A DNA stretch of 64,000 nucleotides from Octopus vulgaris. Lineage: Eukaryota. The notes under the pieces are model-generated. The model ran no database searches and had not been told where the DNA came from. It saw only the letters and a program-made list of their open reading frames with translations. Of this stretch, positions 11,070 through 54,582 are shown one piece after another. Position 1 is the first letter of the stretch, and each line of letters opens with the position of its first letter. The stretch is from the NCBI GenBank assembly GCA_951406725.2, contig OX597822.1, positions 4,154,001 to 4,218,000 on the forward strand, written 5' to 3'. A program made the translations under genes and the position numbers.

Positions 11070-11485
11070 ACGGCGAGCTGGCAGAAACGTTAGCAAGCCG
11101 GGAGAAATGCCTGGCGGTATTTCGTCTGCCGTAACGTTCTGAGTTCAAATTCCGCCTAGGTCGACTTTGCTTTTCATCCTTTCGGGGTCAATTAAATAAG
11201 TACCAGTGACGCACTGGGGTCGATGTAATCGACTTAATCCGTTTGTCTGTCCTTGTTTGTCCCCTCTGCGTTTAGCCCCTTGTCGGTAGTAAAGAAATAG
11301 GTATTTCGTCTGCCGTTACGTTCTGAGTTCAAATTCCGCCGAGGTCGACTTTGCCTTTCATCCTTTCGGGGTCGATAAATTAAGTACCAGTTACGCACTG
11401 GGGTCGATATAATCGACTTAATCCGTTTGTCTGTCCTTGTTTGTCCTCTCTATGTTTAGCCCTCTGTGGGCAATAAAGAAATAAA
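11070..11485 (+). mobile_element. SINE family B with two internal units of about 184 bp
   Basis: Head ggcgagctggcagaaacgttagc and B box GAGTTCAAATTCC. The string ggtatttcgtctgccg occurs at 11116 and 11300. Confidence 0.85.
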
Positions 11486-14914: not shown

Positions 14915-17067
14915 TGAACTTGAACAGGGGGGCCAGACAGGCAGATGAAATTCAGCAATATAAGTTGGGCAGTTATATTTCCTCTAACGAGGCAATGTGG
15001 CGCCTCCTGGGCTTCGAAATCCAGGAGCGACAACCAACAGTGGTGAATCTACCTGTACATCTTGAAAATGGCCAACGTGTATATTTCATACTAGACAATG
15101 CTCGAAACGTAGTTCTAAATCCTCCATAAACCACTTTGACAGTTTTCTTCAAATTATGCCAATGTGATCTGTTTGCCCGAACACTGTTGCATGCTGAGGT
15201 TCTCGTGTACTATACCTGGACACACAATAGTTGGAACAGACGCAAGCAAGGCGCACGCGTTGAGGGCTGGGAAGAACATTCTGTATTCAAAAGTAATGCC
15301 ATCGGGCGGGCGTACACTGTGCACCCTAATCAGTAGGAGTGCTTCTTTTTGCGTCTACTGCTGCACAGTCAGACCTTCGAAGACACAATGGGGAAGTCTG
15401 CACGACCTACAAAGAATCTTGTTCTCAGCCTGGATTACTGGAGGACGATGCTCACTGGGACCAGACACTGGAGGAGGCAGCAATCAGCACAGTACTAAGT
15501 CAACTGCGCCAGCTATTTTCTATCATGTTGATGATATGTGGCTTGGGTGAACCTTTCAAGCTTTGGGTGACCCACAAATTCAGCTTGGCAGAGAACATTC
15601 TACAAAGGATTCAAAGGCAAACCGCAGCGGAAACTGCCACATACAATAACGCTATTTACAATGAGGCATTACTTGACCTGGACACCGGAGTGCAAGCTAT
15701 GGGAGGTCAAGACAGCAAACAATCTCGCAATTGAGTACCTGCGAGAAACCCGCTATGGCATCGAGGAATTGACGGTGTATATAACTGATAGCGAAGGCAA
15801 GCTGATGGTGGACCAACTGGGATTTATAAGATCACTATTTCGAGCACCGAAAGTGAAAGAGGAGGTATTTTCTTTCTGGAACTGGCACGACATTTGTCAT
15901 CAACCTTCTTCTTGTTAAACTGCGCCAAATGAAACACATTGCCATAGCAGCGGCGTCAAGTGGAATAGCGGCAACTCTGCTAAGCGGTGACCGCACAGCT
16001 CATTCCTGTTTCAAACTCTCTTTGGACCTGTCCAAGAAAGAGAAGGAAAACTGCATCATTTGTCGTGGTTGTATAAAAGGCAAACTTCTGAGTGAATGCA
16101 GGTTGATCATCTGGGATGAGGTGATAATGACACCTAAGGTTTACTTTGAAACTCTTGACATGGCTCTTCGGGATCTGAGGCACAACACCAGTCTTGTGGG
16201 AGGTTCCACAGTCTTGCTGGCAGGAGACTTTAGACGAACCCTTCCCGTGGTTCCAAAGGGGACAAGAGCTGATGAGGTAAATGCCAACATAAAATCGTCC
16301 TACCACTGAGTCACCAGTTATGCTGCTTCGAAACCTCGATCCACCAAAGCTTTGCAATGGCACACGACTTATAATAAAAAAGATTATGCTAACAGTCTTG
16401 GAGACAACAATTTTCACTGGTAAAGCAAGCGGTGAGCTTGCTTTACCAGTCAATTTCTCAGAATTCCACTTGTTCCTTCGGATATACCTTTCCAGTACAA
16501 GCGCCTTCAATTGCCGTTGAAACTGAGCTTTGTAATGGGCATTAGCGAGGACCAGGGGCAGTCCTTGGATGTGGTAGGTCTGAACTTTGCGGATCCAGTT
16601 TTCTCCCATGGACAACTTTATGTGGGATGCTGAAGAGTCGGCAGTCCTAATCATTTGTTTATTTATGCCCCACAAAGAAAGACCAAAAATGTTGTTTATC
16701 AACAAGCTCTGCAAACTCAATAAGATTCACCAAATCATCAGGTTTTTATAATTTAAGTGTAACATTTGTAAGTGTTGTAAATCTATTGATAATCCACATG
16801 TTATTTCGTTTTAAATCTATATGCAAATATATTTGTATACTCTTTACTCTTTTACTCTTTTACTTGTTTCAGTCATTTGACTGCGGCCATGCTGGAGCAC
16901 CGCCTTTAATCGAGCAACTCGACCCCGGGACTTATTCTTTTTGTAAGCGCAATACTTATTCTATCGGTCTCTTTTTGCCGAACCGCTAAGAAACGGGGAT
17001 ATAAACACACCAGCATCGGTTGTCAAGCAATGCTAGGAGGACAAACACAGACACACAAACACACACA

Positions 17068-30814: not shown

Positions 30815-31582
30815 CCGTGTGCTAACGATTGTTTTCTACTCTAGGCACAAGGCCCGAAATTTTGTGAAGGGGCCAGTCCATTAGATCATCCCTAGTACGC
30901 AACTAGTACTTAATTTATCGACGCCGAAAGGATGACAGGAAAAGTCAACCTTGCCGGAATTTGAACTCAGAACATAAAAACAGACGAAATACCTATTTCT
31001 TTATTACCCACAAGGGGCTAAACACAGACAGAACAGACAAACAGATTAAGTCGATTATATCGACCCCAGTACGTAACTGGTACTTAGTTTATCGACCCGG
31101 TAAGGATGAAAGGCAAAGTCGACCTCGACGGAATTTGAACTCAGACCGTAACGGCAGACGATATACCTATTTCTTTACTACCCACAAGGATATAAACACA
31201 GAGAGGGCAAACAAGGACAGAAAAACGGATTAAGTCGATTATATCGACCCCAGTGCGTAACTGGTACTTAATTTATCGATCTCGAAAGGATGAAAGGCAA
31301 AGCCGACCTCGACGGAATTTGAACTCAACGTAACGGCAGACGAAATACCTATTTCTTCACTACCCACAAGGGGCTAAACACAGAGAGGGCAAACAAGGAC
31401 AGGCAAACGGATTAAGTCGATTAGATCGACCGCAGTGCGTAACTGGTACTTAGTTTATCGACCCGGAAAGGATGAAAGGCAAAGTCGACCTCGACGAAAT
31501 TTGAACTCATAACGTAGCGGCAGACGAAATACCGCTAAGCATTTCGCCCGGCGTGCTAATGTGTCTGCCAGCTCGCCGTCTT
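30815..31582 (-). mobile_element. SINE family B with four internal units of about 175-183 bp
   Basis: aatttgaactc recurs at about 30958, 31133, 31316 and 31498, with a single head near 31580. Diverged copies also lie at 29920-30340. Confidence 0.88.
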
Positions 31583-32092
31583 AAATTGCATTCTTTGTTG
31601 ATATTAATAGGGAATTAAGGGCAATAGAGTGAAGGGCAAAGTCGACCCACGTAGGATATGAATTCAAATCATAAAGGAACACATCGAAATTCTACAAAAA
31701 CATTTCTACCATCGCAGCGTCATTGATTTACTAAGTTAGCTTCAATGAAGAGAAGGGGGAGGAAAAGAAGTACAGAAATGAGGTTGTACGTGGTAGTAAT
31801 GGTGGCGAGGGGGGGAAATGTGATGAGGATGGAGTTGATAGAGTTTGAATGGAGGCCGGTAGTGACGATTTATCATAATTCCGAAGTTAATGTATTGCTA
31901 ATGTTGTTCTTGTTGTTGTTGCTATGTTGATAATGATTACAGTTTTAGTTTCCTTTACACATACATATATCCCTTATATACGCGCACACGCGCGCCCACA
32001 CACACACATATTCATGAACAGGCACACATACATTTACATATATACATATATGTACACACGTATATATATACATATATGTACGTATATATATA

Positions 32093-32145
<53 letters not shown>

Positions 32146-32281
32146 GAGGGCATTATACATACATGCCAGAGGGCATTATACATACATGCCACACGCTAAG
32201 AGGGACAATTAGTCATTTCTACCAAAAATTTTACTAATCCCCCCGAATGCAATTTTTCAAAGTAAGACATTTAAAAATATA

Positions 32282-32327
32282 GACTTGTATCACTGTGATT
32301 TCATACCTCTGTATTCATCAGCAAGCC
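32282..32327 (-). ncRNA. Type I hammerhead ribozyme (inverted copy)
   Basis: Reverse complement of ggcttg-CTGATGA-ATAC-agag-GTAT-GAA-ATCAC-a-GTGAT-A-caagtc. Confidence 0.9.
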
Positions 32328-32486
32328 TGGACATATCATAAATAAACGACCCTGCCTCGCTTAAGCCGAGCAGCTAACTGGTCAACATCAACGAAGCACA
32401 TGGGTGAGTTTACATATATTACATCCGGTAAATGGCAGACTTTTACGAATTGCATTTCGTAAGGTCGTTTATTTAAGATATGTCCA

Positions 32487-32532
32487 GGCTTGCTGATGAA
32501 TACAGAGGTATGAAATCACAGTGATACAAGTC
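32487..32532 (+). ncRNA. Type I hammerhead ribozyme, predicted cleavage after 32526 (AUA)
   Basis: Stem I GGCUUG/CAAGUC, core CUGAUGA and GAAA, stem II AUAC/GUAU with an AGAG loop, stem III AUCAC-A-GUGAU. Confidence 0.92.
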
Positions 32533-32962
32533 TATATTTTTAAATGTCTTACTTTGAAAAATTGCATTCGGGGGGATTAGTAAAATTTTTGGTAGAAATG
32601 ACTAATTGTCCCTCTTAGCGTGTGGCATGTATGTATAATGCCCTCTGGCATGTATGTATAATGCCCTCTATATATAAATTAATATGTTCAATAAGAAATA
32701 ATTATTTTCGAAATTTTTTCTCTTATGAGGTCTTTCACGCTATCTACCTGACAATTTCTTGTTAAGTTTTCCTTATTAAGTAGTTGTCCTTAATTGCTAA
32801 ATTTTTATTCCGAAAAAACTTTTCCTTTCCCGAAATGCAATTCGTAAAAGTCTGCCATTTACCGGATGTAATATATGTAAACTCACCCATGTGCTTCGTT
32901 GATGTTGACCAGTTAGCTGCTCGGCTTAAGCGAGGCAGGGTCGTTTATTTATGATATGTCCA

Positions 32963-33008
32963 GGCTTGCTGATGAATACAGAGGTATGAAATCACAGTGA
33001 TACAAGTC
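32963..33008 (+). ncRNA. Type I hammerhead ribozyme, predicted cleavage after 33002
   Basis: Identical to 32487-32532 and 476 bp downstream of it. Confidence 0.92.
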
Positions 33009-33276
33009 TATATTTTTAAATGTCTTACTTTGAAAAATTGCATTCGGGGGGATTAGTAAAATTTTTGGTAGAAATGACTAATTGTCCCTCTTAGCGTGTG
33101 GCATGTATGTATAATGCCCTCTGGCATGTATGTATAATGCCCTCTATATATAAATTAATATGTTCAATAAGAAATAATTATTTTCGAAATTTTTTCTCTT
33201 ATGAGGTCTTTCACGCTATCTACCTGACAATTTCTTGTTAAGTTTTCCTTATTAAGTAGTTGTCCTTAATTGCTAA

Positions 33277-33338
<62 letters not shown>

Positions 33339-39574: not shown

Positions 39575-41300
39575 ATAGACTTGAAGCAAAAATATCAAAA
39601 ATGAGAAAGATGTAGAGTTCAAGACAAGTCAAGGATGGTTCATGAGATTTAAGGAGCAAAGAAGTTATCACTCCATTAAGAAGCAAGGTGAAAGTGCATC
39701 AGCTGACGAACAAGCAGCAGCGGAATTTCATAATGCATTAAAGAAAATCATCGAAGAAAACAGCTTTCTTCCTGAGCAGATTTTTAACGTAGACGAAACT
39801 GAATTTTATTAGAAAAAATTGCCAGACCGTTCATTCATTTCCAAGGAGGAGAAAGCTATTCCAGGCTACAAGGTCTCAAAGAACGTGTGACCATTATGTT
39901 GAGCGGTAATTATGCAGGAGATTTTAAGTGAATCGTGCTTGTGAATCGTGCACACAACCTGTCCCTGAAGAACATACCCAAGGCATTTCTCCCTGTTGTA
40001 TGGATGGCTAATTCAAAAATATAGGTTACTGTTGTTGTTTCTGAAGATTGGTCCTTCAATCATGTTATCCCAGCAGCAGAGAAGTACTGTAAGGAGAAGG
40101 GGATTCATTTTAAGGTTGTACATAACATAGATTATGCTCCTGGCCACTTGCAAAAGATTTTGACCCCAAAGTTACCGTCATATAATTCCCTCCGAACTCC
40201 ATGTCTCTTCTGCAGCCAATGGATCAGGGAATAATTGCTATCTTCAAGCGTTACTATATGAAGCGTACGCTGCAGCAAGCACGAGCTGCAGCGGATCTTG
40301 ATGAGTCCATCACACTTTGTGACTTTTGGAAGAGATACGATATCTGCAAGGCTGAACAGAACATAGCAGCGGCATGGAATGATGTACAGAGCACGGCTGT
40401 GAATGCTGTATGGAAGAAGCTATTCCCGCAATTCATGAATGATTCTAAGGGGTTTGATAATGTTGCCATCAACAAAACGTTGGTGACTCTACGAGAAAAG
40501 AACTGGAAATGGATATGGGGATAGGATTTCACAGATTTATTTGAAAAAGACGAGTAGCCCCTGACGAACGACGATTTGATAGAGCTTCACGAGCAGCAAA
40601 ACAAAGAAGGGGAGGTCGAACCTGAGCCACGTCACTTTAAGAAAATGCAGCAAGCATTTGCATATATCGAAAAGGGTATTTCTATGTTCGAGGATATGGA
40701 TCCAAATGCTCAACTCTTTTCCAAGATTATGGGGGCTTGTCCCAAAGCTTTTGCTCCATATAATGTAATCCTTGAGAAAAAGAAAAAGACGGTTCAAGGA
40801 ACTGTCTAGTGCATCGAACAACAAGAACAGCCAGAGCTAGCTATTGATGTTGATGATACACAGCCATCTACATCCTCGATGTAAACCACCAAATTTTATG
40901 TACGTAGTGGTAAATTTAAAATAAATTAGCCTTTTTTACTATTTCAAAATAATAATAATTGCCGAATTTGTGTTTTAAGCTTAGAAAATGCTTTTATTTT
41001 ACCATGTCTTATTGCAAAACGCATTCATAACTAAAGCGTCCGCCATGTACGGTAAACACCGCCGAATTGTATTCGTAAATTTAGATTACATTTTTTGTTT
41101 ACTGTACTGTATCCAAAAATAAAAATTATTTGTTTTTTATGCTTAAAATAGGCTTTTATTAACCATTTATTATTGAAAATGCATTCATAGATAAAGTACA
41201 GAACTGGGAATGGTTATTATCGAGTTAGCATAGAGACAAGTTAATTCGACTTAAATCGTGTCTCCTGGAACCAATTAACAACGTAGGGTAGGTGTGCCTG
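39575..41300 (+). mobile_element. 5'-truncated Tigger/pogo DNA transposon with transposase pseudogene
   Basis: FKTSQGWFMRFK (CENP-B-type HTH), GESASAD, PEQIFNVDET, IDYAPGH, PPNSMSLLQPMDQGII (DDE_1). The right TIR ...ggtgtgcctg|TA ends at 41300. Confidence 0.9.
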
Positions 41301-42581: not shown

Positions 42582-42996
42582 GGTGGCGAGCTGGCAGAAA
42601 CGTTAGCACGCCGGGCGAAATGCGTAGCCGTATATTGTCTGCCGTTACGTTCTGAGTTCAAATTCCGCCGAGGTCGACTTTGCCTTTCATCCTTTCGGGG
42701 TCGATAAATTAAGTACCAGTTACGCACTGGGGTCGATATAATCGAATTTAATCCGTATGCCTGTCCTTGTTTGTCCTCTTTGTGTTTAGCCCCTTGTGGG
42801 TAGTAAAGAAATAGGTATTTCGTCTGCCGTTACGTTCTGAGTTCAAATTCCACCGAGGTCGACTTTGCCTTTCATCCTTTCGGGAGTCGATAAATAAAGT
42901 ACCAGTTTCGCACTGGGTTTGATATAATCGACTTAATCCTTTTGTCTGTCCTTGTTTGTCCTCTTTGTGTTTAGCCCCTTGTGGGTAGTAAAGAAA
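42582..42996 (+). mobile_element. SINE family B with two internal units
   Basis: Nearly identical to 11070-11485. Confidence 0.9.
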
Positions 42997-53666: not shown

Positions 53667-53821
53667 TTTAAAAAAAATTTTTAAATGACAGATTTTTTAA
53701 AATTTCGTCTTTTTAGTGAGTGATTGACAGACAAAGATACAGAGAAGGGTTGTTGTGAATGGCTTCAGTCACACACACACGAACATGTATGCGTACAAAA
53801 AGATATGTATGCAATAGGCGT

Positions 53822-53860
<39 letters not shown>

Positions 53861-53959
53861 GCCCGTATATATATATATATATACACACAATATAAACGAT
53901 ATTCTCTGTTTCTCCACTGCCAATTTCCAAACTAGGTGAATCCGTTGCTCTACTCATTG

Positions 53960-54582
53960 CAACATTTAGGGACCAATTCTGTATGTTTTTACTCCACTCT
54001 AAACGCTTTGCAACGTTTGTTTTTGAAAATAGTGGTTTTCTGATTGCAGCCTTTCCGTGAAATCCGGCTTTGTGCACCTCCCGGCGAACAGTTTTTTGTG
54101 GAAACTGAGTTCTCGAGGTGGTCATTAAGCTCTGCAGTAATTTTGGGGGCTGTACTTTTGTGATCCTTTCTAACAATTTGCGTAAGAATCCGACGGTCCC
54201 TATCTGAAAGTTTTGATTTTCTTCCAGAATTTTGTTTCGCCGAGGAGGTTTTTCCCTCTTTCTCAAAGGCTGCCATTACTTTCGAAACAGTACTTCGTGA
54301 TACACCAAACATTTCGGCTGTTTTCGTTACGCTAGCACCTGCCATACGAGCACCAACGATTTGACCTCTTTGAAAGTTTGATAGATCTGTAATTTTAATT
54401 AATTTTAATTACCTTTTTCTGATGATATCTGAAAAGAAATAGAAATTTTAGCAAAACATATTAAGCAACACTAATAATAAATCAAAAAACATAAAAATAA
54501 ACAAGCTTTTGACGGATTTATAGATATTTCAAAATTATGATGCTATGCTGCTAGGTGTTTCCATTATCTTGCCCATCCCCTG
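53960..54582 (-). mobile_element. 3'-truncated Tc1-type DNA transposon (paired-like HTH region)
   Basis: (I)TDLSNFQRGQIVGARMAGASVTKTAEMFGVSRSTVSKV..SGRKSKLSDRDRR, then a frameshift to TVRREVHKAGFHGKAAIRKPL..KRLEW. The left TIR is TA|CAGGGGATGGGCAAGATAATGGAAACACC. Confidence 0.9.

Follow-up and report, generated by a model that had tools for sequence, protein, structure and literature searches.

A protein-free hammerhead repeat family in the genome of Octopus vulgaris ends at two fixed sites and carries a Penelope-type insertion signature

The window analysed here, a stretch of 64,000 nucleotides from Octopus vulgaris (assembly GCA_951406725.2, contig OX597822.1, positions 4,154,001 to 4,218,000), contains an insert in which copies of one unit face each other and each copy carries a complete hammerhead motif. 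This locus raises the question of what kind of element leaves such a mirror-image insertion, and by what machinery a sequence that encodes no protein could have been copied into its target. Our analysis reveals a young member of a repeat family that lacks ORFs, encodes no protein and has thousands of copies in the genome. We consider it, with a probability of about 0.8, to be the insertion of a non-LTR retrozyme that was copied in trans by a Penelope-like reverse transcriptase-endonuclease priming at two sites, A and B. The features of the locus are collected in Table 1, and unit positions are counted from window position 32527, the first base past the predicted cut, as nt 1.

Table 1. Features of the insert and its flanks, in window coordinates
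Feature	Position	Strand	Remarks
Left (TA)n target tract	32101..32136	none	From the sequence
Inverted arm	32137..32459	-	Unit nt 305 via the cut to nt ~152; 3' end at 32137 = site A
Type I hammerhead, mirror of 32953-33014	32276..32337	-	Predicted cut between 32288 and 32287
Head-to-head arm junction	32460..32462	none	3 extra bases
Forward arm, 1.7 units	32463..33280	+	Begins at unit nt 413; 3' end at 33272-33280 = site B
Type I hammerhead 1	32477..32538	+	AUA triplet; predicted cut after 32526; from core, stems and compensatory changes
Predicted cut-to-cut monomer	32527..33002	+	476 nt, non-coding, strongly structured
Conserved branched domain with sites A and B	32591..32804	+	Consensus fold helices 3, 5, 6, 8 and 9; end mapping
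23-bp tandem duplication	32623..32669	+	Also 33099-33145 and 32145-32191; only in the 474-481-nt subfamilies
Site A, read through in this unit copy	32670..32681	+	Also 33146-33157; from junction spellings
Type I hammerhead 2	32953..33014	+	Predicted cut after 33002
Right (TA)n target tract	33281..33337	none	From the sequence

The preliminary description of this DNA saw an inverted copy, a unit and a partial unit, all nearly identical, and this architecture is confirmed: the 323-nt inverted arm is 100% complementary to 32831-33153, and the forward arm repeats with a period of 476 and one mismatch (at 32476). The insert was also correctly placed, as non-coding DNA, within a (TA)n tract, which lies on either side of it; six-frame translation of the doubled 476-nt monomer gives no long ORF, and the surroundings are repeat-rich non-coding DNA, with a GC content of 0.335, below 50%, in 32001-33000. 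The hammerhead cores (at 32493 and 32969 on the plus strand and at 32321 on the minus strand) and the stems of the three type I hammerheads are as first described, with the correction that the third lies on the minus strand. Both (TA)n flanks contain an AAC interruption that may mark a target duplication; flanks share at least 9 letters in 15 of 59 loci versus 6.2 in shuffled pairings (maximum 13), a comparison that is confounded by local microsatellites. Elsewhere in the window, a dispersed repeat of 174-185 bp forms tandem arrays of 2-4 copies (30873-31580, 11116-11483 and 42630-42996), and decayed coding fragments (707-1425, 15330-16309, 40186-40524 and 53769-54408) presumably resemble LTR-type reverse transcriptase, Helitron-type helicase and DDE transposases.

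The initial reading was made to depend on further copies in the genome, and these are abundant: exact matches to three family motifs number 129, 1,085 and 2,442 in the 2.8-Gb host genome, with 0 for the reversed controls. The unit itself is found at high identity in at least 191 places (40 of 1,227 candidates scored), with 89-100% identity among the 150 matches listed. Across the family, cut-to-cut units measure 453-503 nt, arrays reach up to ~8 units, and identity falls to 63-71% in old subfamilies. The claim that the element is young thus applies to the subfamily of this locus, whose neighbours at 99-100% identity indicate a young insertion, but not to the family, which is old. An ORF-less family with a conserved type I hammerhead and many copies in (TA)n agrees with the retrozyme-type reading, and the family is a new non-LTR retrozyme, or non-autonomous Penelope-like, family of a kind that is itself already known. 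Our literature search found no description of it, although the 2020 supplementary retrozyme list, the tables of a 2026 preprint and Repbase/Dfam may list it. Tandem arrays, and microsatellite flanks that are hard to assemble, could also suggest satellite-like DNA spread by recombination or an assembly artefact, the latter having been named at the outset as a way in which the reading could fail. Dozens of loci share the design but differ in their junctions, so at the level of the family it is no artefact, and dispersal over many chromosomes, fixed 3' ends, variable 5' ends, locus-specific junctions and RNA structure under selection make either explanation highly improbable.

What is new here is that the copies end at two fixed sites, abutting (TA)n, and that an insertion with two arms nearly always uses both. 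The 3' ends map to site A, ~nt 150, and site B, ~nt 272 after the predicted cut, and the junctions enter (TA)n with an overlap of 1-4 nt. Among 89 non-overlapping loci, counted after 13 overlapping or duplicated ones had been dropped, 146 of 156 A or B ends adjoin a microsatellite. The loci L001-L070 contain 48 two-armed clusters, 44 with A+B, one with B+B and three with an off-site end, so that A+B is seen in 44 of the 45 with both ends on-site; the lone B+B results from an incorrect split of L003, which is bounded by A on one side and B on the other. A motif-picked set, biased to B, gives A+B in 14 of 14 two-armed loci. In old subfamilies, 27 of 54 loci are two-armed (18 A+B, one A+A and eight with an off-site or cut end), giving A+B in 18 of the 19 with both ends on-site, and the sole A/A locus, L217, is split by a TA tract. 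All of these loci are best or first-listed matches and no random sample. One A and one B per two-armed insertion is the 'tail at one end' signature of Penelope, with a tail of 122 nt here, and the inverted arm is indeed of the Penelope type, as had been proposed. We found no description of two fixed ends in any retrozyme, with the proviso that the same supplements and Repbase/Dfam may contain one. In one old subfamily (L215, L216, L217 and L219), the TA-rich site A appears to have expanded to (TA)n within arrays, or to hold nested insertions.

Could the inverted arm have been made from DNA, by a cDNA that folds back, is copied and is then trimmed by the endonuclease at the TA-like site A? Site A contains TATATATAAAT, the junctions show palindromes or overlaps of 1-9 nt between the arms, self-priming has been proposed in the literature for such junctions, and 27 of 41 loci have compatible arm lengths. 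However, arm lengths at the remaining 14 of 41 preclude fold-back of a single cDNA in either direction, and the longer arm can be either one, depending on the locus; we therefore regard such an origin as unlikely. Both arms exceed one unit at 11 of the 41 loci. The 5' ends of 107 arms are scattered round the unit, and 2 of them lie no more than 4 nt from the cut, against 2.0 expected. Run-off at the cut is likewise not seen among these arms, 9 ends falling in -5..+20 versus 5.9 expected (p 0.13). Apparent 5' ends at unit nt 311 were excluded, since a deletion in one reference had produced them artificially.

Is the hammerhead itself likely to be active? Among 32 distinct motifs, the core reads CUGAUGA in 26, CUGAAGA in 5 and CCGACGA in 1, residue 17 is A in 28 and C in 4 and never G, GAA is kept, and the five pairs of stem III are retained in 30. 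Only stems I and II provide independent evidence, because the pattern used to collect the motifs required the core and stem III letters. These two stems show double compensatory changes, such as U-A to C-G at I.2 and I.3 and A-U to G-C at II.1. A palindromic stem III working as a dimer had been considered; a dimer is possible, but the five pairs show that it is not required. In this copy the pair 10.1-11.1 is A-U, unlike the usual G-C, which is conserved in canonical hammerheads (PMC4209133), and a literature search for the A10.1-U11.1 pair found nothing. A search with the Rfam hammerhead models, the check first proposed for this motif, gave no match at the gathering score nor at E<=10, and the hammerhead fold, with a probability of 2e-4, is not the predicted minimum. 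Judged from sequence, self-cleavage activity is likely but no more than that, given the departure at A10.1-U11.1 and folding programs that do not favour the hammerhead fold. Among the sequencing runs listed as containing the family, none is recorded as RNA. Three runs presumed to be RNA contain contigs of the family at low depth, of a sort that cannot reveal ends, strand or circles, and one contig in one of these runs has the inverted junction and a TA flank, as if from read-through.

The whole unit appears to be shaped by its RNA structure. The 476-nt monomer folds better than 100 of 100 shuffles (z -6.65), and four diverged units folded as circles give z values of -2.1 to -5.1 (20 shuffles each). 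A consensus fold of 11 units has 92 pairs, with 97% of cells paired; double changes occur at 15 of the 92, a value reached in 0 of 500 shuffles, to be read with the caveat that the lineages are few and the structure was taken from the same alignment. Helices 1-2 join unit nt ~15-45 to ~303-335 and span site B, which indicates selection on the complete unit and not on a terminal stub alone. Sites A and B each lie a few bases 3' of a conserved hairpin, and the branched domain that holds them is, in our model, the likely recognition and start region of the reverse transcriptase. These features bear on another explanation, that the copies are 5'-truncated pLTR stubs of an autonomous Penelope-like element and no independent unit. 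Autonomous elements have precisely the same kind of inverted arm, tail and (TA)n target, according to the accessible portions of PMC8557442 and PMC3846280, and the endonuclease candidates scored were 150 of 6,136 (Pfam GIY-YIG) and 150 of 19,436 (second endonuclease clade). Against this, every arm seen to exceed one unit loops back into the unit before it and none into an ORF, the conserved helices require read-through of site B, and no Penelope-like ORF is continuous with the element at the loci examined. We consider it improbable that the copies are such stubs.

A Penelope ORF flanked by the retrozyme sequence, as envisaged in the preliminary description, was not found in the GIY-YIG and second-clade searches, the extended flanks of 20 loci or the profile searches. 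The insert also fails as an autonomous Penelope-like element, since no ORF lies inside or continuous with any examined copy. Four Penelope-like fragments near retrozyme copies are separated from them by microsatellite or other repeats, and copies 2.9 kb apart on C1, considered as a pLTR-ORF-pLTR arrangement, turned out to be two separate insertions. The genome holds a young Penelope-like element with an intact 781-aa frame of reverse transcriptase and GIY-YIG and an upstream ORF at 16 among the 148 matches listed (L114:289-5510, G000:C6:112993788-112999009, and L101-L116), with a 509-bp pLTR; one such frame lies at G000:C6:112995675-112998020. It uses (TA)n targets, and its two ends are separated by ~33 nt (a 33-nt tail), each occurring once in all 6 two-armed cases seen (L106, L118, L237, L244, L246 and L254), mapped with a query biased toward one end. 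We label it 'Neptune-like', tentatively, from a CxxC finger before its nuclease and not from a tree. Its pLTR has a hammerhead-like motif in which U3 and A8 replace C3 and G8. Further Penelope-like families with a C-terminal GIY-YIG, at least five in number, are present, mostly decayed, and many of them end in (TA)n (L151-L170, L281-L310). No shared sequence was detected between the retrozyme and the young element, and comparison with the terminal repeats of sampled Penelope-like families (100 + 30 loci) gave nothing beyond nested copies of the retrozyme and a single weak match. Likeness of the distal ends of retrozyme and Penelope-like element reaches p 0.003 and 0.007 in old subfamilies, as a post hoc comparison, and 0.28 in the subfamily of this locus.

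How would such an insertion arise? The end geometry is directly established. For the steps that lead to it, we infer that the unit RNA would be transcribed, cut by its hammerhead and ligated to a circle of ~476 nt, and that a Penelope-like reverse transcriptase-endonuclease, probably a protein dimer, would bind the domain of A and B. Both strands of the (TA)n tract would be nicked, one 3' end priming at A and the other, separately, at B. The enzyme would run a variable distance, often going round the circle more than once, so that arms could reach ~8 units, and the two cDNA ends would be joined head to head through short microhomology. The Penelope two-primer step is, in our judgement, very probable. 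As far as the text of PMC11167929 is available, one Penelope-like protein, studied in purified form, cuts both strands and extends them, starting at two internal RNA sites that define the tail.

For the circular form of the template we see an even chance, the alternative being an uncut multimeric transcript. With the same family and the same two-site priming, an uncut linear multimer transcribed from existing arrays could serve without any circle, the hammerhead cutting rarely or acting as a folded structure that binds protein. In the one biochemical system described in the accessible text of PMC11167929, hammerhead cutting is dispensable and uncut RNA is the main substrate, which makes such a multimer a serious rival; hammerhead mutants were without effect on insertion in vitro, and RNA-seq of an anole element showed no ends at the cut. 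The A-U at 10.1-11.1 together with the AUA triplet points the same way, and the absence of 5' ends at the cut fits a multimer as well as a circle. Copies at L032 and L043 differ at 6 and 4 sites, respectively, by variants found elsewhere, so a single circle is not always the sole template. In contrast, copies of one locus are nearly uniform, even in arrays of up to ~8, the core, a cleavable residue 17 and the stems are kept across 63-71% divergence, and retrozyme circles have been demonstrated in coral, mussel and axolotl. At L033, L038 and L069, some rare variants are common to both arms. We give the uncut multimer an appreciable chance of being the template, though a minor one. More speculatively, and in our view rather doubtful in its full form, a 476-nt viroid-like circle may be recognised by its shape, without homology to a helper, by a reverse transcriptase dimer that starts at two hairpin-flanked sites of one domain, one per target strand, and rolls on.

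We compared the octopus family with the closest known elements. Animal non-LTR retrozymes, as described in the available text of PMC7229834 and bioRxiv 10.64898/2026.07.22.740005, share with it ORF-less tandem units with one type I hammerhead each, low GC, a highly self-paired predicted monomer, thousands of copies and co-existence with Penelope-like elements. The octopus unit is slightly longer than the 150-450 bp of PMC7229834 and falls within the 51-972 bp of the 2026 preprint, so far as these sources are accessible. The family differs in its 5-pair stem III, in that no homology to a resident pLTR was found, and in that its RNA is a predicted one. Inverted arms and two fixed 3' ends belong to the octopus family and are not described for retrozymes in the portions of this literature at hand; the word 'inverted' is absent from the main text of PMC7229834. 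The accessible part of the preprint argues that retrozymes are non-autonomous Penelope derivatives and reports in vitro cutting for 1 of 9 frog retrozyme dimers.

The same genome also contains another young retrozyme family, unrelated to this one (L261:1556-2764, G000:C1:70536555-70537763; L039:661-1309; L167:2208-2768). It has a 353-nt unit, a type I hammerhead with a GUC triplet and G10.1-C11.1, a palindromic stem III and (TA)n targets. Its copies end at unit nt 174 and 222, and at L015/L261 it forms a fusion with an arm of the 476-nt family.

Endonuclease-positive Penelope-like elements, in the available text of PMC8557442, PMC3846280 and PMC11167929, have a pLTR, an inverted copy at the 5' side, an ORF and a tail of 30-40 nt, whereas the octopus family has no ORF and a tail of ~122 nt. 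Relative to these descriptions, its one-end rule is near-absolute, its starts are AU-rich and its target overlap is 1-4 nt. Chlamys elements such as MRC1 share non-autonomy, pLTR formation and multicopy head-to-tail insertions, but, according to the accessible text of PMC8557442, their 3' ends are generally similar to those of the autonomous partner, and they belong to a clade without canonical hammerheads, and the octopus family differs in both respects.

The earlier link between retrozymes and Penelope rested on co-occurrence and pLTR homology. In the octopus family, an ORF-less retrozyme itself bears the Penelope insertion signature, and its mirror-image insertions with two fixed ends likely show a Penelope-type enzyme copying from both ends of a DNA break. 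The near-strict A/B rule and the widely spaced sites provide a compact 476-nt RNA system for two-ended priming, the need for the ribozyme and the circular template. If a circle recognised by shape and a reverse transcriptase dimer are indeed at work, a single mechanism would account for the Penelope tail as well as for inverted repeats and tandem arrays, and the ends described here would be the first direct trace of how a retrozyme is mobilised. The finding thus bears on how retrozymes move and on the origin of the tails and inverted ends of Penelope-like elements.
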